A DNA stretch of 64,000 nt from Candidatus Peregrinibacteria bacterium (GTDB taxonomy: Bacteria > Patescibacteriota > Gracilibacteria > CAIRYL01 > GCA-016699755), in NCBI GenBank assembly GCA_016699755.1, contig CP065009.1, positions 298,098-362,097 of the forward strand, read 5' to 3'. The notes under the pieces were generated by a model that was not told where the DNA came from, did no database searches, and saw only the letters and a list, made by a program, of their open reading frames with translations. Below, in pieces: positions 14,196 to 62,908 of the stretch. The first letter of the stretch is position 1; each line of letters opens with the position of its first letter. A program made the position numbers and the translations under genes.

Positions 14196-14197
14196 TC

Positions 14198-15005: not shown

Positions 15006-15116
15006 TGTATTTTTGGAAAGACATTCTGTACTATATCATTTTTTTAGTGATTTTTAAATGCCAACAGTTGACATTTATTTTTTAAGGTATTAAAAGGGAA
15101 TTCATATCAATTTTCT

Positions 15117-15932: not shown

Positions 15933-16004
15933 TATATTTTTTACCATTAGTGATGAATTTTATCACATAAAATAGTTTTCCACTTTTTACTATTACTCAG
16001 CAGA

Positions 16005-17984: not shown

Positions 17985-18030
17985 GTTTTGGAAAATCTCT
18001 GATATTTCTTGAGAAGAAAATAGCGATAGA

Positions 18031-19428: not shown

Positions 19429-19467
19429 TCTTTTTGTGGAGAGATATATGACAAGTTTTGGGAGTGA

Positions 19468-20913: not shown

Positions 20914-20942
20914 GTGACTCGGGAAATTTTCTTTTTCCTATT

Positions 20943-47345: not shown

Positions 47346-47504
47346 ACCTTTTTCTCTTTCGCAATATTTTTTTTTGTGTTTGTAATTTAATTATTATATG
47401 TTATAATAGCAACAAGAACACAAGAACAGAAAAGGATTTCAAAAACATAAAATGATAAACAGAAAACCTCTCTGCTCACAGATTCTCTTTCTTTTTCGGC
47501 TTTT

Positions 47505-49676
47505 ATGAAACTCTCCCGAGTAAAAGCACTTGCGATACATCCTGTTTCGCTTTTTCTTTTTCTGCTGAGCCTTGGTGCTCTTCTTTTTCTTTTACAGGTT
47601 TCCTTACGAGGATTTTCTGCTTCTCTTACACACCTTCAATCGTTTTCTAACGGTGACAATGGTGCGCAGCTTCTTGGCGCAGAATCAGTATTTGTAGATG
47701 GAGATTACGCTTATGTTGTTTCTCGTTTTTCTGATTCACTTGAAATTATTGATGTCTCTGATCTCTTAACGCCTACTCGAGTAGGACACCTCATTGACGG
47801 AGAAGGAGGCGCAGAGCTAAATGGTCCTTCTTCTGTTGTTGTTCAGGATGGATATGCTTATATTACCGCCAATTACGGAGATGCTCTTGAGGTAGTAGAT
47901 GTTTCTGATCCAACAACGCCAGTGCATGTTGGCTCACTTACACACGGAGAGGGTGGCGCAATACTTGATGGTGCGCTTTCCGTGAAAGTCTCTGGAAATT
48001 ATGCCTATGTCGCTTCTTATGTTGGGGATGCATTGGAAATTATTGATATTTCTGATCCGAGTAATCCAAGACATGCTGGTGTTTTGAGAGATACTCTAGG
48101 TGGAGCACAACTCGATGGTGCTTCTGATGTTGCTGTCTCTGGAAATTATGCCTATGTTGCCTCACAATTCTCCGCGGCATTCCAAATTATTAATATTTCT
48201 GATCCGAGCAATCCAGTAGCAGTTGGTATTCTTCAGGATTCTCGAAAACTGCGACAAATCCGATCTGTTACTCTTGAGGGGAATTATGCGTATGTAACAG
48301 CACGAAGTGCGCTTGCTTTTCATATTATTGATATTTCTGATCCAACGAATCCCGATTATGTCGGCAATGTTCGAAATGGTGCTGGTGGAGCAAAACTTAA
48401 TGATCCGCGATCAGTAGTGATTTATGGAGGAAAGGCGTATATTGCTTCTTTTCGATCTGATGCTGTTGAGGTTGTTGACCTCACCAATAAAGGTGTTCCA
48501 GCACATTCTGGATATTTGAACAAGAGCAAAGAAGAGGATGATTTGAAATTCCCTACTTCACTCTTTATGAAAAATGGAGTTCTTTTTGTGACATCTTTTC
48601 TTTCCCCCGGATCTCTTGAAATTATCGGAGTCGATCCACAGCCGGATGTTTCGGTAACTCCTGTGCCATACGATTTTCTTGATCTTCCCATAGGAGAGAC
48701 GAATATTCAGACCTTTACCGTCAAAAATTCTGGCTACGATACACTTGCCATTGGAAACGTGACGCTAGAAGGAGAAGGAACCAATTTTGAAATTATAAAT
48801 GACGGATGTTCACTCGGAACCCTTGAGCCTCGAGAAGAGTGTTATCTTGATGTCTCATTCTCTCCAGAATTTGGAGGAGAACAATTTGCCACTCTTTCTG
48901 TTGAAACGAATGTCCCCTCAAAAACAGAGTTCTCTTTGAGCATTCTCGGGACAGGAGGAATAACAGTGGGAGATGACGATGATGACGACAATGATGTTGG
49001 TTCTTCTGAATTTGTTGCCATTTGTCATATTCCTCCCGGAAATACTGAAAACAAACAGCGTATTACCGTTCCAGAATCTGCTCTTTCTGCTCATCTCGCG
49101 CATGGAGACAACATTGGTCCATGTGAAGAAAGATCCACAGAAGAGTTTCCTGCAGAAATTAACGGAAACGGTAGTTTCACTACAAACGCAGATTCAAATA
49201 TGACTATTCGTGTACTTGGTACGGAAATTACTTATGGAGCTGGCGGTCCAGATGTTCCGGTGGAACTGGAAGCACGTGTCGGGAATGACACCTATACTAT
49301 TTTCTCTGGAACTTCTGTCGATGTTGCGGGAGCCGAACCACTTGTTCTAGAAAATGTTCCCGTTGGAACTACAGCACACTTTAAGGGGACATCATATCAT
49401 CCCTATCAAACAACTCGAAAACTCTACAGTCAAACTACCCAAAGCGGATCTGCACTCATTATTGTGCTTCGTAATGGAGATTCGCTTCCAAATGCAACGC
49501 CATACGGACAGCAACCTGCCATCTCAGATATTCTTTCGGACTACATCAACGAAGAGGGAATCGTCACTATTGGTAACAACGAGGTCATCTATCTCTTTGA
49601 GCTTGGCACAAATAGCCCATCGTCTAGCTCTGCCGATTTTCAGGATGCCGCTCTTCTTGTTACCTTTCCTGAATAA
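47505..49676 (+). CDS. secreted LVIVD-repeat beta-propeller protein
   Basis: Signal peptide, then at least 7 repeats of 'G.YAYV....d.LEIIDISDP.NP..VG', a poly-Asp linker 'GDDDDDDND', and a C-terminal domain. Confidence 0.75.
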   Translation: MKLSRVKALAIHPVSLFLFLLSLGALLFLLQVSLRGFSASLTHLQSFSNGDNGAQLLGAESVFVDGDYAYVVSRFSDSLEIIDVSDLLTPTRVGHLIDGEGGAELNGPSSVVVQDGYAYITANYGDALEVVDVSDPTTPVHVGSLTHGEGGAILDGALSVKVSGNYAYVASYVGDALEIIDISDPSNPRHAGVLRDTLGGAQLDGASDVAVSGNYAYVASQFSAAFQIINISDPSNPVAVGILQDSRKLRQIRSVTLEGNYAYVTARSALAFHIIDISDPTNPDYVGNVRNGAGGAKLNDPRSVVIYGGKAYIASFRSDAVEVVDLTNKGVPAHSGYLNKSKEEDDLKFPTSLFMKNGVLFVTSFLSPGSLEIIGVDPQPDVSVTPVPYDFLDLPIGETNIQTFTVKNSGYDTLAIGNVTLEGEGTNFEIINDGCSLGTLEPREECYLDVSFSPEFGGEQFATLSVETNVPSKTEFSLSILGTGGITVGDDDDDDNDVGSSEFVAICHIPPGNTENKQRITVPESALSAHLAHGDNIGPCEERSTEEFPAEINGNGSFTTNADSNMTIRVLGTEITYGAGGPDVPVELEARVGNDTYTIFSGTSVDVAGAEPLVLENVPVGTTAHFKGTSYHPYQTTRKLYSQTTQSGSALIIVLRNGDSLPNATPYGQQPAISDILSDYINEEGIVTIGNNEVIYLFELGTNSPSSSSADFQDAALLVTFPE

Positions 49677-49700
49677 AAAAACATCTCTGTTTCTCAAAAA

Positions 49701-49731
49701 GCGACCGAATTCCCTTTTGGTCGCTTTTTTT
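49701..49731 (+). terminator. intrinsic terminator
   Basis: GCGACC-gaattccctttt-GGTCGC followed by TTTTTTT. Confidence 0.7.
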
Positions 49732-49766
49732 GTATGATGCCACTTGTCTCTTTATCCCTCTAAATC

Positions 49767-50849
49767 GTGCTTTCTGATGCTTTGCAAAAGATGCTTTCTG
49801 AAATTTCTGATGAGCAGAAAATGCTTGAAAACGAGCTATTGCTTCCTGAAGTCATGAATAGTCCCGCGAAAATTCGGAGTCTTTCCGAGCGACTTTCAGA
49901 AATCCGCGAGCCAGTGGAAAAATTTCAGCAATGGAATATCGCTCAATCTGCTCTTGCTGAAGCAAAACTGCTTCTCACTGATCCAGAAATGAAAGAGCTT
50001 GCACGAGAAGAAGTGGACACAAACACTATTCTTCTTGAGGGAATTGAAAAAGAGCTTCACATTCTTCTTATTCCGCGAGATCCAAACGATAATCGCGAAG
50101 CAATTATTGAAATTCGCCCTGGAGCAGGAGGGGAAGAATCTGCTCTTTTTGCGGGAGAACTTATGCGCGCCTATTTTCGTTTTGCGGAAAAAGAAGGGAT
50201 CCCCATAGAAATTATGGACAAAAATGAATCTGAAGGCGGTGGCATAAAAGAGGCGATATTTGAAGTGCACAGGAGTGGTGCATATGGAAAATTCAAATTT
50301 GAAGGAGGTGTACATCGAGTACAACGGATTCCTGCAACGGAATCACAAGGGCGTATTCATACCTCTGCAGTATCTGTTGTGGTGCTTCCCAAAGTGGAGG
50401 AGGCAGAATTTGTTATTGAAGAGAAGGATATAAAAGTAGATGTTTTTCGCTCGAGCGGTCCGGGTGGACAATCGGTCAATACAACTGATTCTGCGGTGCG
50501 TATTACACACATTCCCACTGGAACAGTGGTCACTTGCCAAGATGAAAAAAGTCAGTTAAAAAACAAGGTCAAAGCACTCTCAGTACTCCGAAGTCGTCTT
50601 TCTGCGGCAGAAACGGAACGAAAAGCAAAAGAAGCAGGGGAAAAACGTCTTGCACAAATTGGCTCCGGTGATCGTTCGGATAAAATTCGCACGTACAATT
50701 TTCCACAAGATCGTGTTACTGATCATCGTCTTTCGGGCGGACAGAAAAACTTTTCGAATATTTCTGGCATTATGGCAGGAAATTTACTTCCCATTATAGA
50801 GGCTCTGCGAGAAGAGGAATCGGCATTATTTTCGAATGAGAATTTATAA
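49767..50849 (+). CDS. prfA: peptide chain release factor 1
   Basis: 'RIPATESQGRIHTSA' (PxT = RF1 tripeptide) and 'SGPGGQSVN' (GGQ). GTG start. Confidence 0.9.
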   Translation: MLSDALQKMLSEISDEQKMLENELLLPEVMNSPAKIRSLSERLSEIREPVEKFQQWNIAQSALAEAKLLLTDPEMKELAREEVDTNTILLEGIEKELHILLIPRDPNDNREAIIEIRPGAGGEESALFAGELMRAYFRFAEKEGIPIEIMDKNESEGGGIKEAIFEVHRSGAYGKFKFEGGVHRVQRIPATESQGRIHTSAVSVVVLPKVEEAEFVIEEKDIKVDVFRSSGPGGQSVNTTDSAVRITHIPTGTVVTCQDEKSQLKNKVKALSVLRSRLSAAETERKAKEAGEKRLAQIGSGDRSDKIRTYNFPQDRVTDHRLSGGQKNFSNISGIMAGNLLPIIEALREEESALFSNENL

Positions 50850-50955
50850 CCATTGCATGTCTTTCCTATGGAAAATGGTTTTTTTCGTCGTTGTCTTGTA
50901 AAAAAGAACTTGGTTTGACCAGAACCCTCATTCTATGACAAAATGCCCGAGCTAT

Positions 50956-51031
50956 GCCACCATAGCTCAGCTGGTAGAGCGGTCGCTTCGTAAGCGATAG
51001 GTCACCGGTTCAAGTCCGGTTGGTGGCTCCA
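50956..51031 (+). tRNA. tRNA-Thr (anticodon CGU), CCA encoded
   Basis: Hand-folded cloverleaf: acceptor GCCACCA/TGGTGGC, D arm GCTC/GAGC, anticodon stem GTCGC/GCGAT with loop TTCGTAA, T arm ACCGG-TTCAAGT-CCGGT. Confidence 0.9.
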
Positions 51032-51097
51032 GCTTTTTCTTCACTCTCGAAGTTGTTGCTGGTAAGCCATCCAACATGGTACAAACATCATTGTTTC

Positions 51098-51172
51098 GCC
51101 GCCTTAGCTCAGTGGTAGAGCACTGCCATGGTAAGGCAGGGGTCTCGGGTTCAAGTCCCGAAGGCGGCTCCA
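51098..51172 (+). tRNA. tRNA-Thr (anticodon GGU), CCA encoded
   Basis: Acceptor GCCGCCT/AGGCGGC, D arm GCTC/GAGC, anticodon stem CTGCC/GGCAG with loop ATGGTAA, T arm TCGGG-TTCAAGT-CCCGA. Confidence 0.9.
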
Positions 51173-51366
51173 GTTTCATTATCTTTTCTTTCATAAGAAG
51201 AGGGCTTATTTTCGTATTCACTGGCATTCTTCATTATATTTCGGATGTTGTTTTTCATCATAAAAAATAATCTTCTCTTTTTCTTCAGTTTCTTCTGCCC
51301 CAGTGGGCATTTTGTTTGACAAATATCTTAATATTCTTTTATAATAACAAGAGAAAATAAAAAAAA

Positions 51367-52491
51367 ATGACAGACACCCTCCCCCCTTCACCGACTTCAT
51401 CAGACGATAGTCTTCGTGAGAAAGTTCGTAATGCCATTCTTGTAGAAATGGAAAAAGGACGAACACCAGAAGAAATTCTTGACCTTGCGGTTCGCGCAGG
51501 AGCACCAAAAGAGCTCATTGTGGAAGAGCTGGCGAATGTACCAGTAGAAGCACCAAAAAAGAAGGGTATTTCTTTGAATTGGAAATGGTTTGCATATGGA
51601 GGCATGGGGTTTGCATCTGTTGTTGGGGGAATTGCTTTCGCTCTCTGGCTTCCCGAAAAAGAAAGCACCTCTAATGACTTGCCTATAAGCACTCCGCCTG
51701 TTGTTCAAAAAGAACATGCCGTTGCGGAAGAAGAGAAAACAGAAGGGGATGAAAAAAAATCAGAGCAAGAGTCGGAAGGAATAAAGGAGGGTACAAAAGA
51801 GGCTCTTCCTCAAGAAGAGGAAAAAGAAACAGAAAATGCAGAAGATCTTGCTACCACCACCAAGGAGACAGAAAATACAGAAGAGCCTTCTCCAGAGCAA
51901 AAAGAAAGCAAAGATACTCAAGAGACAATTGCAGAAAAGAATGATCCCGAAATCTCAGAAACAGAGAAATCATCCGAATCCACAAAAGAAGAAGCTGTCA
52001 AGGCAGAGCAATCTTCAATAGTTGAGGAGGATGCTCTTCCTCTTTTTCTTCGTCTTCCTGAGCAGATTCTGCTTGCCTCTGGAGAATATTCTATTTTGAG
52101 TTCCGATCCGAGTCGTTTGAATATTACCCTAAATGGCTCTGCTCTTTCTCTAACTGGATATGAGCCCGGAATGGCAACGGTAACGCTTGTGGAAAAGGCT
52201 TCCTCCCAAAAATTCTCCTTTTCGGTCAACGTTCTTGCAGAAGAGGTGACGGAGCGAAAAATCCCTCTCACTCTGAATGTAGGGAAGAAAAAGTATATCC
52301 GAAGTTATGTCGATCAAAAAGTGGAGGCAATGAGTTCTGATGAATCGGTTGCTTCTGCAAAAGTATCGGGAAGTGGAATTCTTGTGATTACTGCGGAGAA
52401 GCAGGGGGAAATAGAAATTTCTGTGACGAACACCGAAAAAAAGCTCACAACGGTGTATGAGCTTTCTGTTGTAGGAGAAAAAACCAAATGA
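51367..52491 (+). CDS. hypothetical single-pass membrane protein with acidic linker and Ig-like C-terminal repeats
   Basis: TM 'GGMGFASVVGGIAFALWL', E/K/T-rich low-complexity region, two beta-rich modules. Confidence 0.5.
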   Translation: MTDTLPPSPTSSDDSLREKVRNAILVEMEKGRTPEEILDLAVRAGAPKELIVEELANVPVEAPKKKGISLNWKWFAYGGMGFASVVGGIAFALWLPEKESTSNDLPISTPPVVQKEHAVAEEEKTEGDEKKSEQESEGIKEGTKEALPQEEEKETENAEDLATTTKETENTEEPSPEQKESKDTQETIAEKNDPEISETEKSSESTKEEAVKAEQSSIVEEDALPLFLRLPEQILLASGEYSILSSDPSRLNITLNGSALSLTGYEPGMATVTLVEKASSQKFSFSVNVLAEEVTERKIPLTLNVGKKKYIRSYVDQKVEAMSSDESVASAKVSGSGILVITAEKQGEIEISVTNTEKKLTTVYELSVVGEKTK

Positions 52492-52495
52492 GCTA

Positions 52496-52936
52496 CTAGG
52501 TTTCTATTCCTTCCGGAAGGGTGTTGAGGAAATTTCCTACCCTCTCTCTTATCTCATCAGGAACAGAACAGTGGGCTAAGAGTGCCTTCGCAAAACTTTT
52601 TAAGACAACAATATTTTTTTCAGGAGGAGTGTCGTTACAAGAAAGAGTTGGGTTGCCTTCTGAGAGAAACATGTTTACGTCTCCGGCACGAAGAACCACT
52701 CCGGTTTTTTTCACTTCTGCGCTTGAAGGAGTCTCTCTGTCTGTAAGATAAAAAGACATATTCACCTCGTTTGGTATATGTGCCAGAATATTCTTGATGT
52801 GTTTTAGAATGCTCGAAATTTGTTGTGAAAAAAGATTTTCTCTTTCTGCTATTCTTTCTTTTGGATAACATTGCTCTGTCATTATACGAAGAAAAATGAA
52901 GAGTGCATTTTTTCTCAAAAAGAATATTCTTGTCAA
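52496..52936 (-). CDS. hypothetical protein
   Basis: 146-aa ORF convergent with the previous gene. No motif recognised. Confidence 0.4.
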   Translation of the reverse strand: MTRIFFLRKNALFIFLRIMTEQCYPKERIAERENLFSQQISSILKHIKNILAHIPNEVNMSFYLTDRETPSSAEVKKTGVVLRAGDVNMFLSEGNPTLSCNDTPPEKNIVVLKSFAKALLAHCSVPDEIRERVGNFLNTLPEGIET

Positions 52937-53031
52937 TTATTTTTCGTTTTTGCTAAAGGAAGAGGGGAATCTGCTTGATGAATACTCCGAAGTCAAAACA
53001 CCTTATTTCATTCCTTCGCCGGAGTGGGTGT

Positions 53032-53070
53032 GGAGGAGTCCCTTGCAGGAGACTCCAGCAGGAGAAAAAA
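53032..53070 (+). repeat. GGAGTC...GACTCC quasi-palindromic element, copy R1
   Basis: 'ggagtcccttGcaggagactccagcaggagaaaaa' is 34/35 identical to R3 (54146-54180) in direct orientation. Confidence 0.85.
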
Positions 53071-53185
53071 TAGGAAAAAAACAGAATATAGTTATTTCCC
53101 TTTACAGCAGTCCTCTCGCTCGTCTAAGTCTTCGTCTTTCGCCATAAACATTCGCAAATCTCACCTTGTTTTGCAAAACCTCAAA

Positions 53186-53230
53186 GAGAGACTTGGACGC
53201 AAAAAGTATAAATGAGCGTCCGAGTCTCTC
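53186..53230 (-). terminator. 15-bp stem-loop, second possible terminator behind the minus-strand gene
   Basis: GAGAGACTTGGACGC (53186-53200) pairs with GCGTCCGAGTCTCTC (53216-53230) with one G-U pair. On the minus strand a U-rich tract follows. Confidence 0.4.
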
Positions 53231-53278
53231 TTCACTCGACTCTTTTTGACTCGACCCTTTTGACTTCTCTCAAAAAGT

Positions 53279-53301
53279 GGCGAAGTCCAAGAGACTTCGC
53301 C
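53279..53301 (-). terminator. intrinsic terminator of the 53317-53919 gene
   Basis: Perfect 9-bp stem GGCGAAGTC/GACTTCGCC with a 5-nt loop. On the minus strand it is followed by ACTTTTTGAG, 16 nt after the stop codon. Confidence 0.6.
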
Positions 53302-53316
53302 AAACAAGGTACTTGC

Positions 53317-53919
53317 TCACTGACATTCGGATAAAATGGAACGAAGTTTCTTAGCGTTTTGTTCGGAGCTTTCTATCAAACTGCGATAACGAGAGTTCAG
53401 AAAGACATCAAAACTATCTATGTAATGTAAGTTCTGATTTTTATCCAAAACAACATTTTCTTCTCCATTATCTGATAAATCAAGCACCTTTCCTTTTGCA
53501 AGCCATTCATCAAAGGCATCAAGAAGATCTTCTAACTGTTGGCGTGTTTGAGGATTAGATTTTAATACTTCCAAAATATACGGTTTATTTTCTTCGGAGA
53601 GCATATCAGTTGTAATTTTTATCGGTTCTGCCAGAACCAAAGCACCAAGAGTTTGTCCGACTTTTGCCCTTATATAAGTCGCATTTGGTACTATCTCACC
53701 AAGTCTTAATTTGATTTCATCGTACTCTTTTTTGTACCTATTCAAATCATCATCTGAAATAAGGCTAAAAGATTTTTTGACATAGGTATGAGCAGTTTTG
53801 TCTCCCTGTGTGTAAGCGTGATAATTTTCACAATGACTGCCATTACGTGTATTTTTACGAATAGAAGCTTTGGGGGAGATACAAGGTACTTCTTCTGACA
53901 AGTTGGGACTTTTAGCCAT
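53317..53919 (-). CDS. hypothetical protein, weak kinase-fold-like catalytic-loop signature
   Basis: 200 aa. 'VLDLSDNGEENVVLDKNQNLHYIDSFDV' resembles the D-x4-N catalytic loop plus the (I/V)D metal-binding strand of RIO/Kdo-type small kinases. No glycine loop seen. Confidence 0.45.
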   Translation of the reverse strand: MAKSPNLSEEVPCISPKASIRKNTRNGSHCENYHAYTQGDKTAHTYVKKSFSLISDDDLNRYKKEYDEIKLRLGEIVPNATYIRAKVGQTLGALVLAEPIKITTDMLSEENKPYILEVLKSNPQTRQQLEDLLDAFDEWLAKGKVLDLSDNGEENVVLDKNQNLHYIDSFDVFLNSRYRSLIESSEQNAKKLRSILSECQ

Positions 53920-54008
53920 TGATAACGAAAGTGAAAGAAAATGTAGTTTTATTTTATTATAAAATATTTCAAGTCTAATGGCAAAATGATTCTGAAAGAT
54001 ATAAACTT

Positions 54009-54044
54009 CCTCCCGCTGGAGTCTCTCGTCAGAGGACTCCGGCG
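54009..54044 (+). repeat. GGAGTC...GACTCC quasi-palindromic element, copy R2 (inverted relative to R1/R3)
   Basis: 'ctcccGCTGGAGTCTC-tcgtcaga-GGACTCCGGC' compared with the reverse complement of R3, 'ctcctGCTGGAGTCTC-ctgaaag-GGACTCCGGC'. The arms are 15/16 and 10/10 identical and the loops are unrelated. Confidence 0.85.
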
Positions 54045-54140
54045 TTAATTGAGATATTCTGGAAATATCCTCATTCTACTGCCTTGAGTTATGGGCAATA
54101 TGATGTTGATGTTTTACATGAATGAGAACGTACCATAGAT

Positions 54141-54175
54141 CTGCCGGAGTCCCTTTCAGGAGACTCCAGCAGGAG
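54141..54175 (+). repeat. GGAGTC...GACTCC quasi-palindromic element, copy R3
   Basis: 'ctgccGGAGTCcctttcaggaGACTCCagcaggag', 96 nt downstream of R2 and fully complementary to its arms. Confidence 0.85.
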
Positions 54176-54306
54176 AAAAATGGCTCCCGCTTGTCATTAC
54201 TTTTTATTTTTGATACATTCATTTCCGATCCATTTTCTAAAATGGAATTGCATCGAGGGTTAGGCTAGAGATGTGAAAACATATCAAAGAGCCAACACCA
54301 TCCGCG

Positions 54307-54512
54307 CTCCTCCTGTCTGGGGAGGAAAAGGAGGTACTCACTGGAAACAGAGAACTATCTCTACCAGAATAGGAAAGTTTTGGATAACTTTCTGAAAAAG
54401 GGAGTCAGGGGAGGAAACAAACCTGACTTCGTGCCCAGAAATAATACTTCAAAACATTCTGAAATCGAAATCAAGGCTTTTATGAGAATTTTCTTCAAAA
54501 AGTCTTGATTTC
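54307..54512 (+). other. hairpin-rich untranslated region directly 5' of the RT (candidate ncRNA/leader)
   Basis: Five hand-folded stem-loops: 54309-54325, 54341-54367, 54373-54392, 54401-54430 (9 bp, starts with GGAGTC) and 54467-54512 (15 bp). Confidence 0.35.
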
Positions 54513-55752
54513 TCCATCCTCTTTTTATTTTACATTGTTATTAAACGAAGTAGCAGAAATAAATAGGCTTAAAAAGTGCTGGATGAGTATTTATGCCAGT
54601 AAATCTGAAGACATTAGAAAAATGTCAAAAGGAATTGACAATGTAACCCTTGAGGATTTTAAAAAGGATGATGATCAAAATTTAAAAGATATACATACTC
54701 AAATAGCAACAGGGAAATTTGAATTTGATGAAATTAAATCTATCCCCAAAAAGAAAAGTAATGGGAAAATTCGTCTTATATCTGCTCCAACTGTGCGGGA
54801 TCGAGTCGTTCATAAATCTATCTTAAGTATTTTAAGTGATGCCTTGTACGATCATATCAATACTGGTGTGAGTTACTGTGGTGTAAAAAAGGATTTTTGG
54901 AAAAAGGAAAAAGACGGACTGAGCATAAAAAGGGCTATTGAACAGTTAGTTACTTATGTGAAGAGACGCAACTATTGGATATTTGAAACAGATATTAAAG
55001 GTTTTTTTGATCATGTTCCCAAAGAAAAAATATTAAAAAAAGTATGCGAAGTGTTACCAGACAGATCGTTGGAAAAGTATCTCAAACAAATAATTTTTTT
55101 TGACATTGGGAATGAGAGTGAACTACTAAAAAAAGAAATCGAAATACCAAATAAAATTAACGGCTTGGCTCAAGGTTCTTCACTTTCACCATTATTCGCC
55201 AATCTTTTTCTTGCTGAATTTGATAATTACATGAAGAGCAAATACGGATTTAGGTATATTCGTTACGTGGATGATTTTATTGTAGTTTGTGAATCTGAAG
55301 AGGAAGCAAAAGAAGCGGAATTGGATTCGACCACAGAATTAAAAAAAGAAAATCTTGAATTATCAAAAGATAAGACCCATATTTTAGATTTGAATCGAAG
55401 TAGTTTGAAATTTTTAGGGGTTCATGTCGATAAATTCTGTATAAAACCCAAGAAAACAACTGGAAAAATAAGGGATTGGCTTGTTAGTGAAGTTTTAAAT
55501 ACTAAATCGTACAAAGTAGTTTTGAGGGCCGGAAAAGAAGTTTCCGTTATAGAACAAATAAATGAGAAAATTCAGGGTTGGGGAAACTTTTACAGGTATT
55601 ATCATGCACAAGAATTGTTTGAAAGTTTGGATGAATTTATCCTCAAAAGAAAAAAAGGGGATAAAAACCTCAAAGACATACTTCTACTCAAAGAAGTGAA
55701 GCTAGAAACAATTGTAAGTCAAGAAGAGTGGCAATCATATTTTAAGGAATAA
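54505..55752 (+). CDS. reverse transcriptase, group-II-intron-like (RT plus maturase-type thumb), free-standing
   Basis: Palm motifs: 'GKIRLISAPTVRDRVVHKSI', 'IFETDIKGFFDHV', 'GLAQGSSLSPLFANLFL', 'IRYVDDFIVV' (YxDD), 'SKDKTHI', 'LKFLGVHV'. Thumb: 'INEKIQGWGNFYRYY...LFESLDEFI'. No endonuclease or DNA-binding tail. TTG 54505 start is provisional (ATG 54583 would cut off the RT0-like 'AEINRLKKCW'). Confidence 0.85.
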   Translation: MISPSSFYFTLLLNEVAEINRLKKCWMSIYASKSEDIRKMSKGIDNVTLEDFKKDDDQNLKDIHTQIATGKFEFDEIKSIPKKKSNGKIRLISAPTVRDRVVHKSILSILSDALYDHINTGVSYCGVKKDFWKKEKDGLSIKRAIEQLVTYVKRRNYWIFETDIKGFFDHVPKEKILKKVCEVLPDRSLEKYLKQIIFFDIGNESELLKKEIEIPNKINGLAQGSSLSPLFANLFLAEFDNYMKSKYGFRYIRYVDDFIVVCESEEEAKEAELDSTTELKKENLELSKDKTHILDLNRSSLKFLGVHVDKFCIKPKKTTGKIRDWLVSEVLNTKSYKVVLRAGKEVSVIEQINEKIQGWGNFYRYYHAQELFESLDEFILKRKKGDKNLKDILLLKEVKLETIVSQEEWQSYFKE

Positions 55753-55930
55753 AATTTCTCCATCCGGTTCGCATGCACGGTATTTATTAGTGGCTGAATT
55801 ATAAGCCTATAAGGTTATTTTTTGCGCCGGACGGGGTGTTCGCGGAGGGTATTGGTGAGGAGCGACAACCCCCTTCATGACGTTTCTTCTTTTAAAAACT
55901 ATACATTTAAGGCAGGTCATGAATTCCCTT

Positions 55931-55962: not shown

Positions 55963-56001
55963 CTACCTCCCTATTCGGATTTTTTGGCTTACACAAAACG
56001 T

Positions 56002-56076
56002 TGGCTCTCCTTATGTATGGAAGTTCGAACTGTTTTAAGGGAAGAAGAGGGTTTTGTGATGCTAGAAATTCCATAA
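56002..56076 (+). repeat. 75-nt direct repeat, copy A
   Basis: 'tggctctccttatgtatggaagttcgaactgtttt...' aligns without gaps to 61312-61386. By hand count 58/75 are identical, and 32/35 over the first 35 nt. Confidence 0.85.
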
Positions 56077-56136
56077 AGAAAGAAGGGTATTTTTTATGGG
56101 AAAATATAATTTGACATAAATAATAAAATCAATAAA

Positions 56137-57060
56137 ATGCTCTCTTATTTTATAATAATGAGGATTTTAGAAGGGAATAATATTTTTAGTAACATACAGC
56201 AGCTTCCACCTTTCTTAGGCAAAGAGGATGAAAGCAATATAATGCGACAGCAAGAATTAGGTATGTGGATCAATTCTCAGTCGGTGCAATTTGGAGAGCT
56301 TGCAGAACAAATAAAGGAGGGTGTTCATTGTACAAATTCTACTCCAGTGGTACTAAAAAACACGGGTATTCAATCTGTTTCAAAAGAAAGCAGAACAGCA
56401 ATAATGATAGGATTTTCTACTTTGTTGGGGCGACCCACCCCAACAGATAAGAGAAATAAAAAAGTTGCGTGGCCGATATCCGTTCCCAAAAATGCGGATA
56501 AAATAAATTTTCGTACTTTTTCAGAACATAATCAGGAAGCAAAACTGCATACAGATTCCCAATACCTTCAGTGTCCAGAGCAAGCGATATCTCTTTGGTC
56601 CATTCATCCTGATGGCTCAGGGGAAGGTTTATCCTATTGTGCAAGTGCACAGGACATTCTTCATGAAATGACGGCTCATTCAGCAGGACAAGAGTCGTTG
56701 CAAATTCTTCAAAGAGAGGATGTTCCATTTCGAGTGCCTTCATCATTTATGCAAGATCCTAATAGTAATCAAACAGAGGTGATTTTCGGGAAAATATTTG
56801 GTCAAAATCCAGTAATGAGATATCGAGAAGATACAATTCATGCAGGCTATGATGCTATCAATCAGATTATGCCTCCTGAAATTGAAAAAGCATTGCAAGA
56901 TATATCTACGGCAATGAACAAGGTGCAAAGTGATTTTTTTCTACTGGAAGCAGGTGATGTACTCTGGATTAATAATCACGATCATCTTCACGCAAGAACT
57001 CCCTTTTCTGATTTAGAGAGATTGCTCTTTAGAATTCGTTATAACTTTTCCCAGCAATAA
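56137..57060 (+). CDS. Fe(II)/2-oxoglutarate dioxygenase, TauD/TfdA (clavaminate-synthase-like) family
   Basis: 'AKLHTDSQY' (HxD) and distal 'WINNHDHLHARTPF' with a trailing Arg, the facial-triad layout of this family. Confidence 0.6.
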   Translation: MLSYFIIMRILEGNNIFSNIQQLPPFLGKEDESNIMRQQELGMWINSQSVQFGELAEQIKEGVHCTNSTPVVLKNTGIQSVSKESRTAIMIGFSTLLGRPTPTDKRNKKVAWPISVPKNADKINFRTFSEHNQEAKLHTDSQYLQCPEQAISLWSIHPDGSGEGLSYCASAQDILHEMTAHSAGQESLQILQREDVPFRVPSSFMQDPNSNQTEVIFGKIFGQNPVMRYREDTIHAGYDAINQIMPPEIEKALQDISTAMNKVQSDFFLLEAGDVLWINNHDHLHARTPFSDLERLLFRIRYNFSQQ

Positions 57061-57809
57061 TGAAATCAATACTCGTTACTGGCGCATCAAGAGGATTGGG
57101 GAAAGGGATTTCTCAATATCTGGACAAAGAAGGACACCGTGTTATCGCTACAGGAAGAGACACTGATTCCCTTCAGACATTGGCTGATCACGGAAATAGC
57201 ATTGAGATATTTACAGCAGATATTTCTACTGCCGAAGGCATAGATACTGTTGTTCAACAAGGAATTCAGCATCAGGTAGATGTCGTGATAAACAATGCTG
57301 GATTTGGGGTTGTTGGAAAACTAAAAGAAATTTCTCGAGAATCCTTACTGAGAATCTTAGAAACAAATTTGGTTGCCCCCATAGAAATCACAAAGGGACT
57401 GCGAAACCAGATAGCAAAAAAACAAGGAAGTTTTGGTTACATTACTTCATTAGCTGGAAAAATGGGATTCCCTGATATGATATCGTACTCTGCTTCAAAA
57501 TTTGGACTTGAAGGAGCAATCGAAAGCCTTCGATATGAATTAGAACCCTTGGGCATAGGATTGACAGTTGTTCGCCCTGGGATGGTTGATACCGATTTTT
57601 TTGATACTGCTGGTTTAACGGAACAAGTAGAGGGAGCAAAGTCAGATGGTTTACTAAAACAGCCCGAAGAAATCGCTCAAGAAATATGTGAAGGAATCCT
57701 GACCAAACAAAGAGAAGTTGTTATCGGGAGTGATAAAGACTTCTTGAGACGATTGCCAAATATCTCTTTTGATGAACGATTAAAAGTTCTCGGAGAAATG
57801 TCTTCATAA
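57060..57809 (+). CDS. short-chain dehydrogenase/reductase (SDR)
   Basis: 'ILVTGASRGLGKGI', 'NNAG', 'YSASK'. Start overlaps the previous stop (TAATG). Confidence 0.85.
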   Translation: MKSILVTGASRGLGKGISQYLDKEGHRVIATGRDTDSLQTLADHGNSIEIFTADISTAEGIDTVVQQGIQHQVDVVINNAGFGVVGKLKEISRESLLRILETNLVAPIEITKGLRNQIAKKQGSFGYITSLAGKMGFPDMISYSASKFGLEGAIESLRYELEPLGIGLTVVRPGMVDTDFFDTAGLTEQVEGAKSDGLLKQPEEIAQEICEGILTKQREVVIGSDKDFLRRLPNISFDERLKVLGEMSS

Positions 57810-57825
57810 TTTTTTTACTTTTGAT

Positions 57826-58836
57826 ATGAATAAAACCATAGATCGACGACTCAAGCCAGAAGAGTATATTGTTACTGGTCAAGAACCCACAGACGAAGAA
57901 GCATATGCAAAATTTTTACACGACCTTACTGATGTTCCGGAATCCCAACCACTCAATGCTATTCCTATTGACCGTGCAGGGATAGCAAACCAATCAAGCA
58001 TCATTCAAATTCGAGATTTTTTTGGAAATACGTTCTCTCATGTTCCTGTAACAATGAAATTAGGAGCAAGCTTAGAAGATCATCGAGGGGTCCACATGTC
58101 TCGTTTTGAAGAAGCATTATTTGCCGCATCAAGAAAAAAATATGACAGTATTGATGAATTTACTCAGGCAATGGCTGAAGAGATTCGCTCTCGACAAAAT
58201 TCAGATACCGCATATGTAAATGCACAGGGGGAATACTTGCACCCACGAAAAACGCGTAAAAGCGAAAAATTCTCTCACGATAAAGTACATCTCTCTAGTA
58301 CTACCGAAAGTATTGGTGACGAATTGCATCAAATAACAGGAGTAAGGGCATACAATATGACCGCCTGCCCTTGTACAAAAACTCATACGAAATATGTTAC
58401 CGTTCCGGCTTTGCGAGAAATGGGGCTTAGTGTTGAGCAAATAAATAAAGTTTTAAATGTGGCACTTACAGGGACTCACACCCAAAGAGGAGAAATCAGT
58501 TTGGTTTTGGATAAAACATCTGATGCCATAACACAAGAAGACATTTATGGTATTTTGGATGATAAAGCACACCTTGTGTATGAATTGCTCAAACGACCTG
58601 ATGAGCACGACCTTGTTATTAGAGCATTGCAAAAACCTCAATTTACTGAGGATGTGGCAAGAGATGTGGCATTGGGAGCATTTGAGTTTTTTGATAAAAA
58701 AGCCCCTGATAATACGAGAGTATGGGTTGAATCAACCCTCAACGACAGCATCCATATTCACGATGTACAGACAGCGATAAATAGTAGCCTTGGACAAATC
58801 AGAAAAGCATTAGCCAACTCTCAACAATCACTATGA
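57826..58836 (+). CDS. GTP cyclohydrolase, FolE2/MptA (COG1469) family
   Basis: 'HRGVHMSRFEE', 'MTACPCTK' and 'GTHTQRGEISL' correspond, as far as I recall, to the conserved HMSRF, CPCS and HNQR blocks of the family. Confidence 0.6.
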   Translation: MNKTIDRRLKPEEYIVTGQEPTDEEAYAKFLHDLTDVPESQPLNAIPIDRAGIANQSSIIQIRDFFGNTFSHVPVTMKLGASLEDHRGVHMSRFEEALFAASRKKYDSIDEFTQAMAEEIRSRQNSDTAYVNAQGEYLHPRKTRKSEKFSHDKVHLSSTTESIGDELHQITGVRAYNMTACPCTKTHTKYVTVPALREMGLSVEQINKVLNVALTGTHTQRGEISLVLDKTSDAITQEDIYGILDDKAHLVYELLKRPDEHDLVIRALQKPQFTEDVARDVALGAFEFFDKKAPDNTRVWVESTLNDSIHIHDVQTAINSSLGQIRKALANSQQSL

Positions 58837-60026
58837 TACCAAAGAATCAACCTGCACAAATTTATGACCTTAATATAGGGGCAAGTATAGTCGGGAGAAA
58901 TGCCTCTCCATATCTTACAAATGAAGACAGAAGAGCATTACAACGCTTAATGTCAGAATTCTCAAATATGTTTCAGGATACAAGAGGAGAAAAACCAGCA
59001 TTGGTAAATACTGATGAATCTTCCTTCAAGCAGGCTACGGCGTTTAGCGAAAGAATAAGAAGACAGTTAGAGGGCCTTCAAGACTATCCAAAAGAGGTAG
59101 TAGTGAGATTGAGAGAATGTCTTGATCAATTTGATGCTCAGGCCCGAAAAGAACATCTAGATAGAGATGGTTTAACGCTGGACAAAGAGCAAGTTGTTCA
59201 TTTATTAGATATTCCAGAGATCCTAGATACATCTCTGTTAAATGAAATAGTTCATAACGAGAGTCAGTGGACCGAGCAACACCATCCTGATGTATTGTCA
59301 CAACTCAGAAATAGGATTGATGCCACTCAGACCCGAGAACTTATACAGGCTTGTGTACAATCTCTGTTTAGAGAAAATATTGATGTTTCTGCGGATATTT
59401 ATACTCAAGATACAGTAGATAGATATTATCTATATTGGTCTACTAATGGTAATGGACTTGATTATGCAACACCATCTCAATACGAACTTGCAACACAGCT
59501 TTCCTTTGATATTCCCCATAATGCAGCTCATTTATTACACTTATCATTTGCTGGTGAACATTCTGTCGAGCAATATATAGACCGGATGAAAGAGAGAACA
59601 TATACAGAAGCTATTGCGGTATTGTCTGAACACCAGATGTACGAACAAGCAGCAGAACAAGGAGAGGTAATAAGAAGCTTTTCTGAGATTCTCAGTATTC
59701 CTATTGATCAACTGTCAGAATGGATAAAACAGGACAGGTCATATGAGTTTCGTCTCCGTCTCGCTCGTCTCTTGTCTGATATAAATACCTTCAATGGAAA
59801 ATCATTTATAGAAAATGTCGCTGCAATTGAAGAAAAACTGTATATCTCACAAAAAGATGCTACCGCAGAAGCCCAGAAATATTATGCTTGGACAGGTTTA
59901 GGAGCAGCCTATACATTGGGATATAATCGGCTCTTATCGCATGGAATACAAAACGCACGAGATGCAATGGCACTCCAAAGTGGAGAATTATTATTTTCGT
60001 GGGAGGATTTTCTTGATTCGAAATAG
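58833..60026 (+). CDS. hypothetical protein (weak DUF885-like C-terminal pattern)
   Basis: ATGA-coupled to the FolE2-like gene. 'DIPHNAAHLLHLSFAGEH' His-rich block, and 'KYYAWTGLGAAYTLGYNRL' resembles the DUF885 'PGQA.sY.iG' block. Low confidence. Confidence 0.35.
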   Translation: MIPKNQPAQIYDLNIGASIVGRNASPYLTNEDRRALQRLMSEFSNMFQDTRGEKPALVNTDESSFKQATAFSERIRRQLEGLQDYPKEVVVRLRECLDQFDAQARKEHLDRDGLTLDKEQVVHLLDIPEILDTSLLNEIVHNESQWTEQHHPDVLSQLRNRIDATQTRELIQACVQSLFRENIDVSADIYTQDTVDRYYLYWSTNGNGLDYATPSQYELATQLSFDIPHNAAHLLHLSFAGEHSVEQYIDRMKERTYTEAIAVLSEHQMYEQAAEQGEVIRSFSEILSIPIDQLSEWIKQDRSYEFRLRLARLLSDINTFNGKSFIENVAAIEEKLYISQKDATAEAQKYYAWTGLGAAYTLGYNRLLSHGIQNARDAMALQSGELLFSWEDFLDSK

Positions 60027-61148
60027 ACTCCATAAAAATAAAATGGCAGCAGCAATTTTTATTCCCAATATAAAATAAATAGCATATTCAATAGTTTCAT
60101 CTAAAAGTATTCCAATAGGTATCTTCGTAAAAAGCAATAGCAATGCTCCCCCTAGGCTTACAATTGAAAAAGAACTCGTAAGCCATTTTTTGGGGACGGT
60201 ATCAGCAATGATACTTTTATAGGCTACTCGATAGATATTTTCCACGAAAAAAAAGAGAAAGAGTGCGAGTGCGGAAAAAATCGGATGAAGAAAAAGTAAG
60301 AAAAAAAATATTGTTGCCTGCATGAGTGCGCCCCATATCAGAATTTTATCTTTTCCCAAAAGAAAAAGAAAAAATGTGCTGAAGTAACTCCCAAGTAGTG
60401 AGCCGATCTTTGCAACGGCATACACTACTCCAAAAAATCCAATAGCGATGCCGGATTGTTCTAATCCGATTTGGAATACACTTTCCCCGCGCTCTTGCAT
60501 TAGCCCCCCTGCGAGTATAAATATCACTGCCAATGGCAATAGTATTTTTGCCTTCATTCCTGTACTATTTTTTCTTACCCATTGCCGTTCACTAGTCCCC
60601 TTGTCATTTGGTAGAAAAAATACGATTGTAATCGAGAAAAGCACTAATAGAAAACCAACAATAAAAGTATGTTGAATATTAATATGAAGAAGTGAGAGAA
60701 ACATATAACTCAATATCATTCCTCCTATCGTCCCAACTTCATCAGCTATTTGAAACTCTCGAAGTAATAATTCAGTCTTTTTTGAATGGAATGTAGAGAG
60801 GAGGAAAGATTCTTCTGTGCCAGAAAGAGATGATAGTCCAAGAGCAAAAAATATTTCGCTGATTAAAAATGTAAAAAAATTATCAGCAAAAGAGAGAATG
60901 AAAAATGATATTCCTAGGGAAAGTAACCCCAATATCATAACCTTTTTTTTGTTCCAAATATCAGCCGCATATGAGCTTGGTATTTCAGAAAGAAGAAGGG
61001 TGATAAATCCTATTGACTGAATAAGGCTTATCTCTAAAAAGGAAAGACCTTGAGAATGTTGAAAAATTATCAATACAGGTATGAGCAATCCGATTGCTCC
61101 ATGTTGCAAGCCTATCCCACAGTAAAATAAATTCCTAGAAAAATTCAT
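59991..61148 (-). CDS. MFS transporter
   Basis: 385 aa, about 12 hydrophobic helices. Convergent 36-nt overlap with the previous gene. Confidence 0.7.
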   Translation of the reverse strand: MNFSRNLFYCGIGLQHGAIGLLIPVLIIFQHSQGLSFLEISLIQSIGFITLLLSEIPSSYAADIWNKKKVMILGLLSLGISFFILSFADNFFTFLISEIFFALGLSSLSGTEESFLLSTFHSKKTELLLREFQIADEVGTIGGMILSYMFLSLLHINIQHTFIVGFLLVLFSITIVFFLPNDKGTSERQWVRKNSTGMKAKILLPLAVIFILAGGLMQERGESVFQIGLEQSGIAIGFFGVVYAVAKIGSLLGSYFSTFFLFLLGKDKILIWGALMQATIFFFLLFLHPIFSALALFLFFFVENIYRVAYKSIIADTVPKKWLTSSFSIVSLGGALLLLFTKIPIGILLDETIEYAIYFILGIKIAAAILFLWSLFRIKKILPRK

Positions 61149-61311
61149 CTTTAATCACTTATTAGTATGCATCACTATCGTAGCACTATATGTTATTGGA
61201 ATGGAACATAATTCACCATATCGTCATAAAGTGACTCCTCAAGTCTACACTTTGAGAATATAAGATCCTATGAAAACTTATTTATGGCTTTATATAGGCA
61301 TAAAACGAGCA

Positions 61312-61386
61312 TGGCTCCCCTTGTGTATGGAAGTTCGAACTATTTTGTTGGAAGAATCAGATTTTGTGGTGCCAAAGATTGTATAG
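61312..61386 (+). repeat. 75-nt direct repeat, copy B
   Basis: 'tggctccccttgtgtatggaagttcgaactatttt...', see copy A. Both copies end with a stop codon at the same aligned position in the same frame. Confidence 0.85.
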
Positions 61387-61447
61387 TTTTTGAAATCTTC
61401 TTTTGCTCTCTGCTGGATCATGCCTGGCAATAGATATTTTTTCTGCT

Positions 61448-62011
61448 TCATAATTTTTCAAGTTCTTTCATGATTGTAAATACCACAGATTCAGCGTTAA
61501 ACTGATCTGTATCTACAGAAAAGACATTTGAATCGAGAAATTCTTTTTGATAATCACAATTCCATAATCGATAGTTTCTATTTATATATTCTTGCACATC
61601 ATCTTTGGAAACATTTCGATACTTTCTTCTATCATCATTACAGGAGCGCTTGAGAAGAGACTCCTTTGAAGCATGGAGATCAAGAATAACTGAAGTATTT
61701 CCGGACTTCTTTATTTGTTGAAACAGATTTCGATATAAAACCATGTATTGTTTAGAATTTCGGTCTAACACTTGTGTGGTAATAAGTACCCCCTCACCCA
61801 CATCGATAAATGATTGTAAGAGATGTTTTCGCAAAGCAAAAATTGAGTTTTTTGCTGCAGTCGTTTTAAAGTCAAAAAGTTCAGTGACGACATCTACAAG
61901 GGCATGATTATGTAAAAAATGAGCATTTGGAATTTGTTTTAAAAGCAGCCTGCCGATAGTGTTTTTTCCTGATGCAGGTGGACCAAAGATACAAATGAGT
62001 TTGACTTTCAT
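61448..62011 (-). CDS. P-loop kinase-like ATPase (AAA_33/shikimate-kinase-like fold)
   Basis: 'CIFGPPASGKNTIGRLL' Walker A. Small single-domain size. Confidence 0.55.
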   Translation of the reverse strand: MKVKLICIFGPPASGKNTIGRLLLKQIPNAHFLHNHALVDVVTELFDFKTTAAKNSIFALRKHLLQSFIDVGEGVLITTQVLDRNSKQYMVLYRNLFQQIKKSGNTSVILDLHASKESLLKRSCNDDRRKYRNVSKDDVQEYINRNYRLWNCDYQKEFLDSNVFSVDTDQFNAESVVFTIMKELEKL

Positions 62012-62051
62012 ATTTTTATTAATAAAATAATATTCTATATTTTATTGAGAA

Positions 62052-62777
62052 ATGCAAACAAATCGTATCGTTACATTTCCAGAATGGGAAATCAATGTTT
62101 CTGATGAGGGTCGGCAAAAAATAAATGCAGTACGTTCAGAGTGTCAAAAAAATCAAAATGTAAATGCACTTTTTTTACAAGGTTCAGCCCTGAGGGGCGA
62201 GGGTGGGGTAAGAAGTGATATTGATTTTATCATCCTGTTTGATTCTGTGTCCGAAAAGGTACATGACTTTGTTCGTAAGTTGTTTGCTGAATTTTCAGAT
62301 ACAGATTATTTTTATTCTTCTATTAGAGAATATCAATCGTATCCTGTTGGTCTAAGGTTTCAGTTCTTTTTATCTCAACAAATTTATGGAGAGCCAGAAA
62401 TACTTGGGCAACCGCCAACAAGCCAAGATCTTTCACAGGTTCTCGCTTATTACTCTTCTTCTTTAAAAGATCAATTGAGGCCTTTGATTTTCCGAAATGA
62501 TTTGTCTGATATTGAGCTTTTCAATAGGGCATATTCTTTATTAAAAAGAGTTGATGACTGTATTATTCGTGTTCAAGATGCTATACAGACAGGAATTTAC
62601 CCTAAACAAAGAGCTCTGATACAAACAGAACCAAATCAAGATGGTCAGCATCTCCTTGAGCTGTTAGATAAATGGCAATCCCAAGGGCATCAACCTGATT
62701 CTCAAGAAATTCGCCAATCAGTTTCTACTATTGATACATTTTTGAGGGAATTTATTGAAAAACATCTGAATACATAA
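62052..62777 (+). CDS. nucleotidyltransferase-domain protein (ANT/AadA-like architecture)
   Basis: 'LFLQGSALRGEGGVRSDIDFIILFD' (GS-x10-DxD Pol-beta NTase motif) plus a helical C-terminal domain. Confidence 0.6.
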   Translation: MQTNRIVTFPEWEINVSDEGRQKINAVRSECQKNQNVNALFLQGSALRGEGGVRSDIDFIILFDSVSEKVHDFVRKLFAEFSDTDYFYSSIREYQSYPVGLRFQFFLSQQIYGEPEILGQPPTSQDLSQVLAYYSSSLKDQLRPLIFRNDLSDIELFNRAYSLLKRVDDCIIRVQDAIQTGIYPKQRALIQTEPNQDGQHLLELLDKWQSQGHQPDSQEIRQSVSTIDTFLREFIEKHLNT

Positions 62778-62833
62778 AAGAAATACTGCTAATTATAAAT
62801 ATTTTATGGCTTTAATAAGCCATAAAATAAGAT

Positions 62834-62908
62834 TGGCTCGGGAGGAAGGATTCGAACCTTCGAATGACGGATTCAGAGTCCGTTGCCTTACCACTTGGCG
62901 ACTCCCGA
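62834..62908 (-). tRNA. tRNA-Gln (anticodon CUG), CCA encoded
   Basis: Minus strand: acceptor TCGGGAG/CTCCCGA, 3-bp D stem GCC-AAGTGGTAA-GGC, anticodon stem ACGGA/TCCGT with loop CTCTGAA, T arm GAAGG-TTCGAAT-CCTTC, then G-CCA. Confidence 0.9.

Follow-up and report, generated by a model that had tools for sequence, protein, structure and literature searches.

Two direct repeats of 75 nt, here called units A and B, bracket a five-gene cassette in a 64,000-nt stretch of contig CP065009.1 (positions 298,098-362,097; hereafter the window, whose own positions are meant by every unlabelled coordinate). The window belongs to the genome of a member of the Peribacteria, a bacterium of the Candidate Phyla Radiation (CPR), which comprises 1.56 Mb in a single contig (G000). 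The gain and exchange of accessory genes in very small CPR genomes are poorly understood, and the question raised by this locus is what the two units mark. A preliminary description had suggested that they may be a boundary duplication of attachment-site (att) type, the duplicated 3' end of a gene, rather than a structural RNA. Our comparisons of sequence point, with about even confidence, to att-type junction sites of modules that would have been accreted in tandem, and without integrases of their own, at the 3' end of the nearby tRNA-Gln(CTG) gene.

Anatomy of the repeat pair

Units A and B are identical at 58 of 75 positions in an ungapped alignment (28 of 31 in the core and 30 of 44 in the rest). 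A repeat search ranked the pair 56002-56075 and 61312-61385 (74 nt, 78% identity) first in length among the direct repeats of the region, and a search of the whole genome found exactly two copies, the second at E = 2e-11 and all other matches at E > 0.8. The gapless pair of the preliminary description was thereby confirmed, as the sole two copies in the 1.56 Mb, where they sit at 354-359 kb.

At every junction in G000 a hairpin, either a copy or a remnant, is followed by TGGCTC and then by an arm, while the tRNA-Gln locus itself consists of a hairpin, TGGCTC and the body of the tRNA; TGGCTC is the plus-strand reading of GAGCCA, the last six bases of tRNA-Gln. The conserved part of the arm is about 25 nt long, TCCTTAATGTTGGAAGTTCGAACTG, and is followed by a looser extension of about 40 nt. 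With TGGCTC as the anchor, the left flanks of unit B and of tRNA-Gln agreed, in register, at 29 of 42 nt (P ~5e-6 against random 42-mers of the genome). A perfect hairpin also occupies the position equivalent to the left flank of unit B in L043, a Logan contig from run SRR14932560 that represents the same species as the window genome. Weaker similarity upstream had been claimed for both copies, and it stands for copy B by the match to the tRNA-Gln flank; for copy A it does not extend beyond a shortened flank (15/42 when ungapped).

The unit in relatives and its position at tRNA-Gln

A DNA search of 40 relatives showed tRNA-Gln to be conserved, together with short matches to the first ~48 nt of copy A in the sister genus, g2. 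A pattern search with TGGCTCTCCTTAATGTTGGAAGTTCGAACT found one copy in each of three g2 genomes (G001, G006 and G007) and none in the 16 other genomes of the order, and scans of public genomes and metagenome contigs added one further instance only, on the GC-rich contig L024; a scan of viral contigs for the core gave no match. The core is identical at 30 of 31 positions between G006 and G007, whose adjoining helicase genes have 78% DNA identity, at 24-27 of 31 between the two genera (g1 and g2), and at 28 of 31 in L024, a metagenome contig that is apparently unrelated. The 31-nt core is, to judge from these alignments, under selection. The full 75 nt are common to five instances (units A and B and the units of L043, G006 and G007), with homology lost at that point; the units of G001 and L024 comprise just ~35 nt.

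The distance from the unit to the 3' end of tRNA-Gln(CTG) is 1.45 kb in G000, 1.9 kb in L043 and 3.0 kb in G001. In G006 it is probably 4.9 kb, given that the contigs with the motif and with the tRNA overlap by 138 nt at 100% identity, an overlap that falls within an IS1595 transposase, so that the join is probable and not proven. The orientation of the unit is in every case that of the TGGCTC end of the tRNA. To the right of the unit the genes differ in all seven instances, and on the left the unit follows a DEAD-box helicase gene in G006 and G007 and a DprA-like gene in G001.

The contig of G001 carries, in order, a helicase pseudogene, hairpins, a degenerate tRNA-Gln 3' half, the DprA-like gene, the motif, a DUF4379/CapR gene, a gene for 220 aa and an intact tRNA-Gln. 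The 3'-half fragment (L019:1066-1110) is ~84% identical to the tRNA by hand count, and fragment and motif have a common left flank, CAT(T)AGTAAAAC, directly before TGGCTC. All three sites that start with TGGCTC lie in one orientation, and the fragment and the motif bracket the DprA-like gene, which is inserted behind the helicase pseudogene. The pseudogene (L019, that is G001:C4, 15-2130) has two stops, and its 5' part is on another contig.

In several other relatives a tRNA-Gln match stands at the very start of a contig (G003:C65:4-92, G005:C52:20-464 and G016:C13:25-83), and G005 has three tRNA-Gln-like matches within 450 nt; these matches hint at variation or repetition of the locus across the family. 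On L024 the core (L024:1050-1077, minus strand) lies 17 nt past the stop of an open reading frame (ORF) that we guessed, from its sequence alone, to encode an FKBP-type lipoprotein. Our guess that the neighbouring 103-aa ORF fragment was an integrase was dropped when Pfam, PHROGs and tblastn against phages and plasmids returned nothing.

A second haplotype and the cassette in other lineages

Over 6.8 kb, contig L043 agrees with G000 at 99.97% identity, and this stretch starts at 62833, precisely where tRNA-Gln has its 3' end. Left of the tRNA, L043 has 1.86 kb of sequence that matches nowhere in G000 and holds genes for proteins of 203 aa and 155 aa; the kinase/nucleotidyltransferase module of the window is here swapped for two unrelated genes. 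Farther to the left, homology resumes over the cassette and unit at 83% identity, up to an end point within unit B (Table 1). The identity profile is a mosaic, with 98-100% over ~57650-58350 and 60-90% elsewhere, which implies that the two cassette alleles recombine. The tract of high identity comprises the 3' end of the short-chain dehydrogenase/reductase (SDR) gene and the 5' half of the cyclohydrolase gene (from an alignment of 56060-61460 with L043:1-5380), and is a tract of recent gene conversion within an otherwise diverged island. The unit of L043 occupies the position of copy B, yet it is nearer to copy A (84% identity) than to copy B (73%).

Upstream of TauD in L043, three independent assemblies go no further than the end of an insertion sequence (IS) with 10 copies, which hides any equivalent of copy A. 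This multi-copy element ends in ...AATTTTAAAATCTGCTACTCAAGAGCC, which is found at L043:1-27 and at 10 sites in G000 (for example 394472, 499103 and 604174); in the L043 haplotype its insertion point is 47 nt before TauD, and all three assemblies break at the same base. Another contig of the same study, L048, is 99.75% identical to the window over 44494-55854, and ends there. Exact-protein look-ups of the flanking genes, made for more haplotypes, gave nothing new for two of the three.

Homologs of the 397-aa protein of the cassette have 67-72% identity, and their contigs (L039-L043) have all five genes in identical order; the cassette thus recurs as a unit in two other lineages, and it varies between strains. 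In L040 and L042 a strain-variable block follows the cassette (positions 12563-21209 of those contigs), made up of either a type I restriction-modification/Fic set or a tyrosine integrase with a HamA-helicase (Hachiman-like) pair.

Proposed accretion at the tRNA, and what weighs against it

Read leftward from tRNA-Gln, G000 would hold module 1 (61387-62791, with the kinase-like and nucleotidyltransferase genes), unit B, module 2 (the five-gene cassette) and unit A. Written from left to right, the array would be hairpin remnant-TGGCTC-(arm A-promoter-cassette-hairpin)-TGGCTC-(arm B-kinase-nucleotidyltransferase-hairpin)-TGGCTC-tRNA. We propose that an incoming module would recombine site-specifically at or near TGGCTC, the likely crossover region, and land between tRNA-Gln and its terminator; older modules would be displaced outward, which would set the order of events, and the old terminator would stay at the distal junction, beside the conserved arm of the module. 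The arm (TCCTTAATGTTGGAAGTTCGAACTG and the extension) would be the element side of the junction, which would arrive with the new module and serve as the binding site of the recombinase. The modules, which carry no recombinase, would either be moved in trans like cis-mobilizable elements or be fixed remnants. Accretion of this kind would explain why TGGCTC is shared, the hairpin repeated, the arm conserved and the right-hand cargo different, and likewise the breakpoint exactly at the tRNA end and the true tRNA-half fragment of G001.

The search for a recombinase was negative at the locus. There are no recombinase domains in 53-63 kb of the window and no recombinase gene within ~100 kb of the region, the nearest genomic matches being >100 kb off; the two Xer-like tyrosine recombinases and the five large serine recombinases of G000 are all encoded at a distance. 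None of the seven modules, in two genera, has a recombinase gene. One might go further and suppose that Peribacteria run an exchange of cassettes at tRNA-Gln with the recombinase in trans, in which promoter-bearing modules of any content would carry a conserved ~30-nt arm and a substitute tRNA terminator, and would be placed between tRNA and terminator by a chromosomal recombinase, Xer-like or of the large serine type. We think such a system improbable.

Several observations weigh against accretion. The unit and the tRNA have only TGGCTC plus GGAAG/TTCGAAC in common, and their overall likeness is no better than that of shuffles, so that this is not a classic tRNA 3'-half repeat; nor can the units, at just 78% identity, be the fresh product of a single event. 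One of the lineages with the cassette (L039-L042, Joint Genome Institute (JGI) loci) has it without the unit or flanking repeats, beside genes like those of a type IV secretion system and ParE genes, with variable defence and integrase genes. The tRNA-proximal junction of L043 has no copy of the hairpin. The left edge of strain-level identity, at 55854, is ~150 nt to the left of unit A and not at unit A. No truly empty site, circular junction or excision product was seen among the genomes and contigs compared, and no recombinase is tied to the site in any genome examined. Finally, stable linkage runs leftward, cassette with unit in two haplotypes and helicase with unit in two species, and the right neighbour is never conserved, which means that an anchor on the host side fits as well as an arm of the element.

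It is on the last of these points that the best of the alternatives draws. The unit might be a conserved host-side element by tRNA-Gln, for example a binding site for a protein or a short signal that functions as RNA or DNA, and act as a mere homology anchor; modules would then be swapped by ordinary homologous recombination between conserved flanks (the unit or the hairpin to the left, tRNA-Gln and gmk to the right), and the second copy in G000 would have come from a segmental duplication or the import of a diverged allele. The mosaic identity of the cassette indicates that homologous recombination is acting here, the unit is linked to its left neighbour in two independent pairs, no recombinase is nearby, and the core is more conserved than adjacent coding DNA, all of which suit an anchor. 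Such an element leaves unexplained, however, the tRNA terminator hairpin and TGGCTC to the left of each unit, the G001 flank that is repeated at a genuine tRNA-Gln 3'-half fragment, the units of only ~35 nt in G001 and L024, and the core in an unrelated GC-rich contig; and the copies have no fold, promoter or ORF consistently in common. We judge this explanation, the main rival of accretion, unlikely.

Is the unit a coding tail?

Both copies read, in one plus-strand frame, as a related tail of 24 aa with a common stop, as had been observed in the preliminary description. The unit might therefore be the duplicated 3' end of a protein gene, or a surrogate tail borne by an element, with the 24-aa WLSL(C/M)(M/L)EVRTVL... 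and its stop under coding constraint, perhaps via stop-codon readthrough of the upstream gene. The frame with WLSL..EVRTVL runs open through each of the five full-length units to a stop at one common codon; it has the best BLOSUM score among the six frames; and it is in frame with the upstream helicase gene across one TGA in G006 and G007, and with the DprA-like gene across TAG TAA in G001.

These features are outweighed by others. Variable columns number 17, 14 and 13 at codon positions 3, 1 and 2, respectively, which is no third-position excess, and a frame on the minus strand is equally open. There is no consistent start codon, and stops lie 1-8 codons upstream in four copies, including the TAG TAA of G001. 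The helicase ortholog in G003 (genus g4, 72% identical) stops with no unit behind it, folE being the next gene; a pattern back-translated from LSLMLEVRTV returned nothing real in 400 other Patescibacteria genomes; and the gene in front of unit B, like that in front of the L043 unit, lies on the opposite strand. An alternative code in which TGA is read as glycine, prompted by the helicase frame, was rejected: long ORFs of translation table 11 run without internal TGA, and the code is thus the standard one, with TGA a stop. We likewise rejected a C-terminal tail of the helicase, which is ruled out by the G003 ortholog and by G001, and a small ORF on either strand, which would have neither consistent starts and ends nor a codon-position bias.

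The idea of a duplicated protein-gene end, or of a constrained tail of any kind, is thus very improbable. In the sister genus the unit follows the stops of two different genes, which speaks against any parent protein gene, and with no parent among the 400 genomes, no tail on the g4 helicase and no codon-position signal, the protein-gene origin that had been suggested is unlikely. The gene with the duplicated end would be tRNA-Gln, represented by its last six nucleotides and its terminator, and not a protein gene. A 53-aa ORF on the minus strand (61290-61451) traverses unit B and has an ATGA overlap with the stop of the kinase-like gene; it has no family match, and no conserved counterpart was seen at the other units.

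tRNA, structured RNA and retroelement origins

It is scarcely credible that the units are decayed tRNA-Gln pseudogenes, whole-gene duplicates of the tRNA and its terminator, since their tRNA-like length of 75 nt, TGGCTC end, TTCGAA box and homologous terminator flank are set against alignments to 42 tRNAs and the transfer-messenger RNA (tmRNA) at the level of shuffles, no finding by ARAGORN or Rfam, no cloverleaf fold, and a core conservation across genera of 84-97%, with which decay is incompatible.

A tRNA or tRNA-fragment origin of the 75-nt body as such was rejected on semi-global alignment, the best score against the 42 tRNAs and the tmRNA being equal to the shuffled maximum. ARAGORN and Rfam, the latter at gathering thresholds and at E up to 5, found nothing at either copy. 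The fold z-scores were +0.17, -0.08, -1.98 and +0.11 over both strands of both copies, of which -1.98 is marginal, being confined to one strand of copy A and not shared with copy B. We thus discarded a structured RNA, folds being no better than shuffles and Rfam giving no match, and on this point the preference for an att-like boundary duplication over a structural RNA was upheld. Given the nearby reverse transcriptase (RT) gene, we also considered a template/variable pair of a diversity-generating retroelement, which was dismissed because the 17 mismatches between A and B are not confined to adenines but affect, on either strand, all four bases, and the boundaries of a group II intron, which were dismissed because no intron RNA families were found around the RT gene.

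Comparison with known systems

Arrays of islands anchored at tRNA genes are well known; what is unusual here is the combination of six tRNA bases with a non-tRNA arm, the lack of a recombinase in all of the modules, and the CPR host. Islands in tRNA genes (tDNA islands) built by tandem accretion include cis-mobilizable elements (CIMEs) and the ICESt1/ICESt3 family (Pavlovic 2004; Bellanger 2011; reviewed in PMC5704250). As in those, one tRNA 3' end carries a stack of modules, the inner ones have no integration genes, and content varies between strains. By the usual marks of a tDNA island, this one abuts the 3' end of tRNA-Gln (identity with L043 begins at 62833) and has strain-variable content, the other haplotype having a different tRNA-proximal module and a diverged cassette, while no tyrosine or serine integrase is found in the island (53-63 kb of the window). 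The 69 nt of a unit beyond TGGCTC are not tRNA-like, and G001 has a true tRNA-Gln 3'-half fragment in its array. By those of a CIME, bounding repeats are present and recombinase genes absent, and the att function is putative. In contrast to both, only 6 nt of the tRNA are repeated, the remainder being terminator and a conserved non-tRNA arm, no module of the genomes examined has an integrase, no helper element was identified, and the host belongs to the CPR.

The tycheposons of Prochlorococcus (bioRxiv 10.1101/2020.12.28.424599) are also tRNA-anchored islands in a streamlined genome, in which newcomers push older elements inward into the island, with scattered remnants, partial repeats and metabolic or transport cargo; they differ in having their own tyrosine or serine recombinases and flanking partial tRNAs, neither of which is seen here. 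Integron cassettes with their attC sites resemble the present modules in being recombinase-less, in the unrelated cargo, and in a recurring site that is conserved less well in its middle than at its ends. Unlike integrons, this locus has no IntI, no attI, no RYYYAAC/GTTRRRY ends and no conserved imperfect palindrome, and one module holds five genes with their own promoter. An attC identity of the unit was rejected for want of a tyrosine recombinase nearby and of R''/R' boxes by inspection, and the inverted repeat TATGGAA/TTCCATA of unit A is not kept in unit B. Integrative mobile elements exploiting Xer (IMEX), or dif modules, which are served by the Xer recombinases of the host, are similar in being integrase-less and in having direct repeats of a conserved site of ~30 nt, and two Xer-like recombinases are encoded elsewhere in G000; the units differ in not lying at the turning point of GC skew and in showing no 11-6-11 dyad by eye. 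The unit was rejected as a dif site, the cumulative GC skew peaking at ~530 kb (vs 354-359 kb for the units) and the motif being found in g1 and g2 only among the 40 relatives.

The interest of the locus lies in the stacking, at one tRNA-Gln gene, of integrase-less modules, of which one is fully different between two haplotypes while the alleles of the cassette recombine. If the junction is a working site that is served in trans, it would provide a compact mechanism of gene exchange and a simple marker of the flexible gene pool; a true trans-acting exchange system would amount to an integron-like reservoir of metabolic and defence genes without an integron integrase. If the junction is only a scar, this is an ordinary tRNA island.

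Layout of the locus

The features of the region are collected in Table 1. The RT gene is followed by ~380 nt without ORFs and then by the cassette, of which the first four genes are co-directional (56137..60026, plus strand) and the fifth lies on the opposite strand; on the far side, gmk adjoins tRNA-Gln(CTG). The enclosure of five genes, with no integrase or transposase among them, was found as described.

Table 1. Features of the repeat-bounded region and its surroundings (window positions)
Feature	Position	Strand	Remarks
Putative third copy of the preliminary description	54180..54194	+	Does not belong to the feature; chance-level resemblance; immediately beyond one end of a hairpin element like a miniature inverted-repeat transposable element (MITE)
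RT gene	54505-55752	+	
Remnant of tRNA-Gln terminator-hairpin flank, shortened	55975..56001	+	Left of unit A; gapped similarity to the flanks of unit B and tRNA-Gln; weak, ungapped 15/42
Unit A	56002..56076	+	TGGCTC, conserved core (to nt 31), less conserved extension (nt 32-75)
Near-consensus sigma-70-like promoter of cassette	56111..56138	+	TTGACA, 16 nt, TAAAAT; 11/12 matches; a consensus match only
TauD-like dioxygenase	56137-57060	+	Pfam TauD
SDR	57060-57809	+	Pfam adh_short
FolE2/MptA-type GTP cyclohydrolase	57826-58836	+	Pfam GCHY-1; NCBIfam MptA/FolE2
Protein of 397 aa without family match	58833-60026	+	No Pfam hit
Major facilitator superfamily (MFS) transporter, fifth cassette gene	59991..61148	-	Pfam MFS_1
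tRNA-Gln terminator-hairpin flank copy	61270..61311	+	Directly left of unit B; repeat family D2, 48 nt, 73%
Unit B	61312..61386	+	Homology with L043 stops at 61381, inside the unit
P-loop kinase-like gene, tRNA-proximal module	61448-62011	-	Family searches
Pol-beta-type nucleotidyltransferase, tRNA-proximal module	62052-62777	+	Family searches
Terminator hairpin of tRNA-Gln	62792..62833	-	13-pair terminator-like hairpin at 62829-62800
tRNA-Gln(CTG)	62834-62908	-	ARAGORN/Rfam; 3' end is the right-hand breakpoint of the variable region

The candidate promoter (56111-56138) ends on the annotated ATG of TauD, and homology to the other haplotype begins at 56168, which suggests that the true start codon of TauD may be further downstream.

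The preliminary description had further joined the RT gene and the cassette into one composite structure, by way of a hairpin near the RT gene that was said to co-occur with the TGGCTC box and of a third, partial copy of the repeat beside it. That copy requires at least 3 edits in 16 nt, and 35 sites of the genome stand at the same edit distance, which is the level of chance. The hairpin belongs to a family of ~20 copies, in which paired, inverted terminal hairpins have unrelated flanks, and its co-occurrence with the TGGCTC box is not a property of the family. With the hairpins spread genome-wide and the units of the relatives adjoining genes other than RT, the composite structure was given up. 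The hairpins, GGAGTC...GACTCC, form inverted pairs that bound MITE-like units of ~175-220 nt (54007-54181 in the window; 892-899 kb, 984-986 kb and 1087.7 kb in G000), and about a dozen of them are packed into 7 kb at 892-899 kb of G000.

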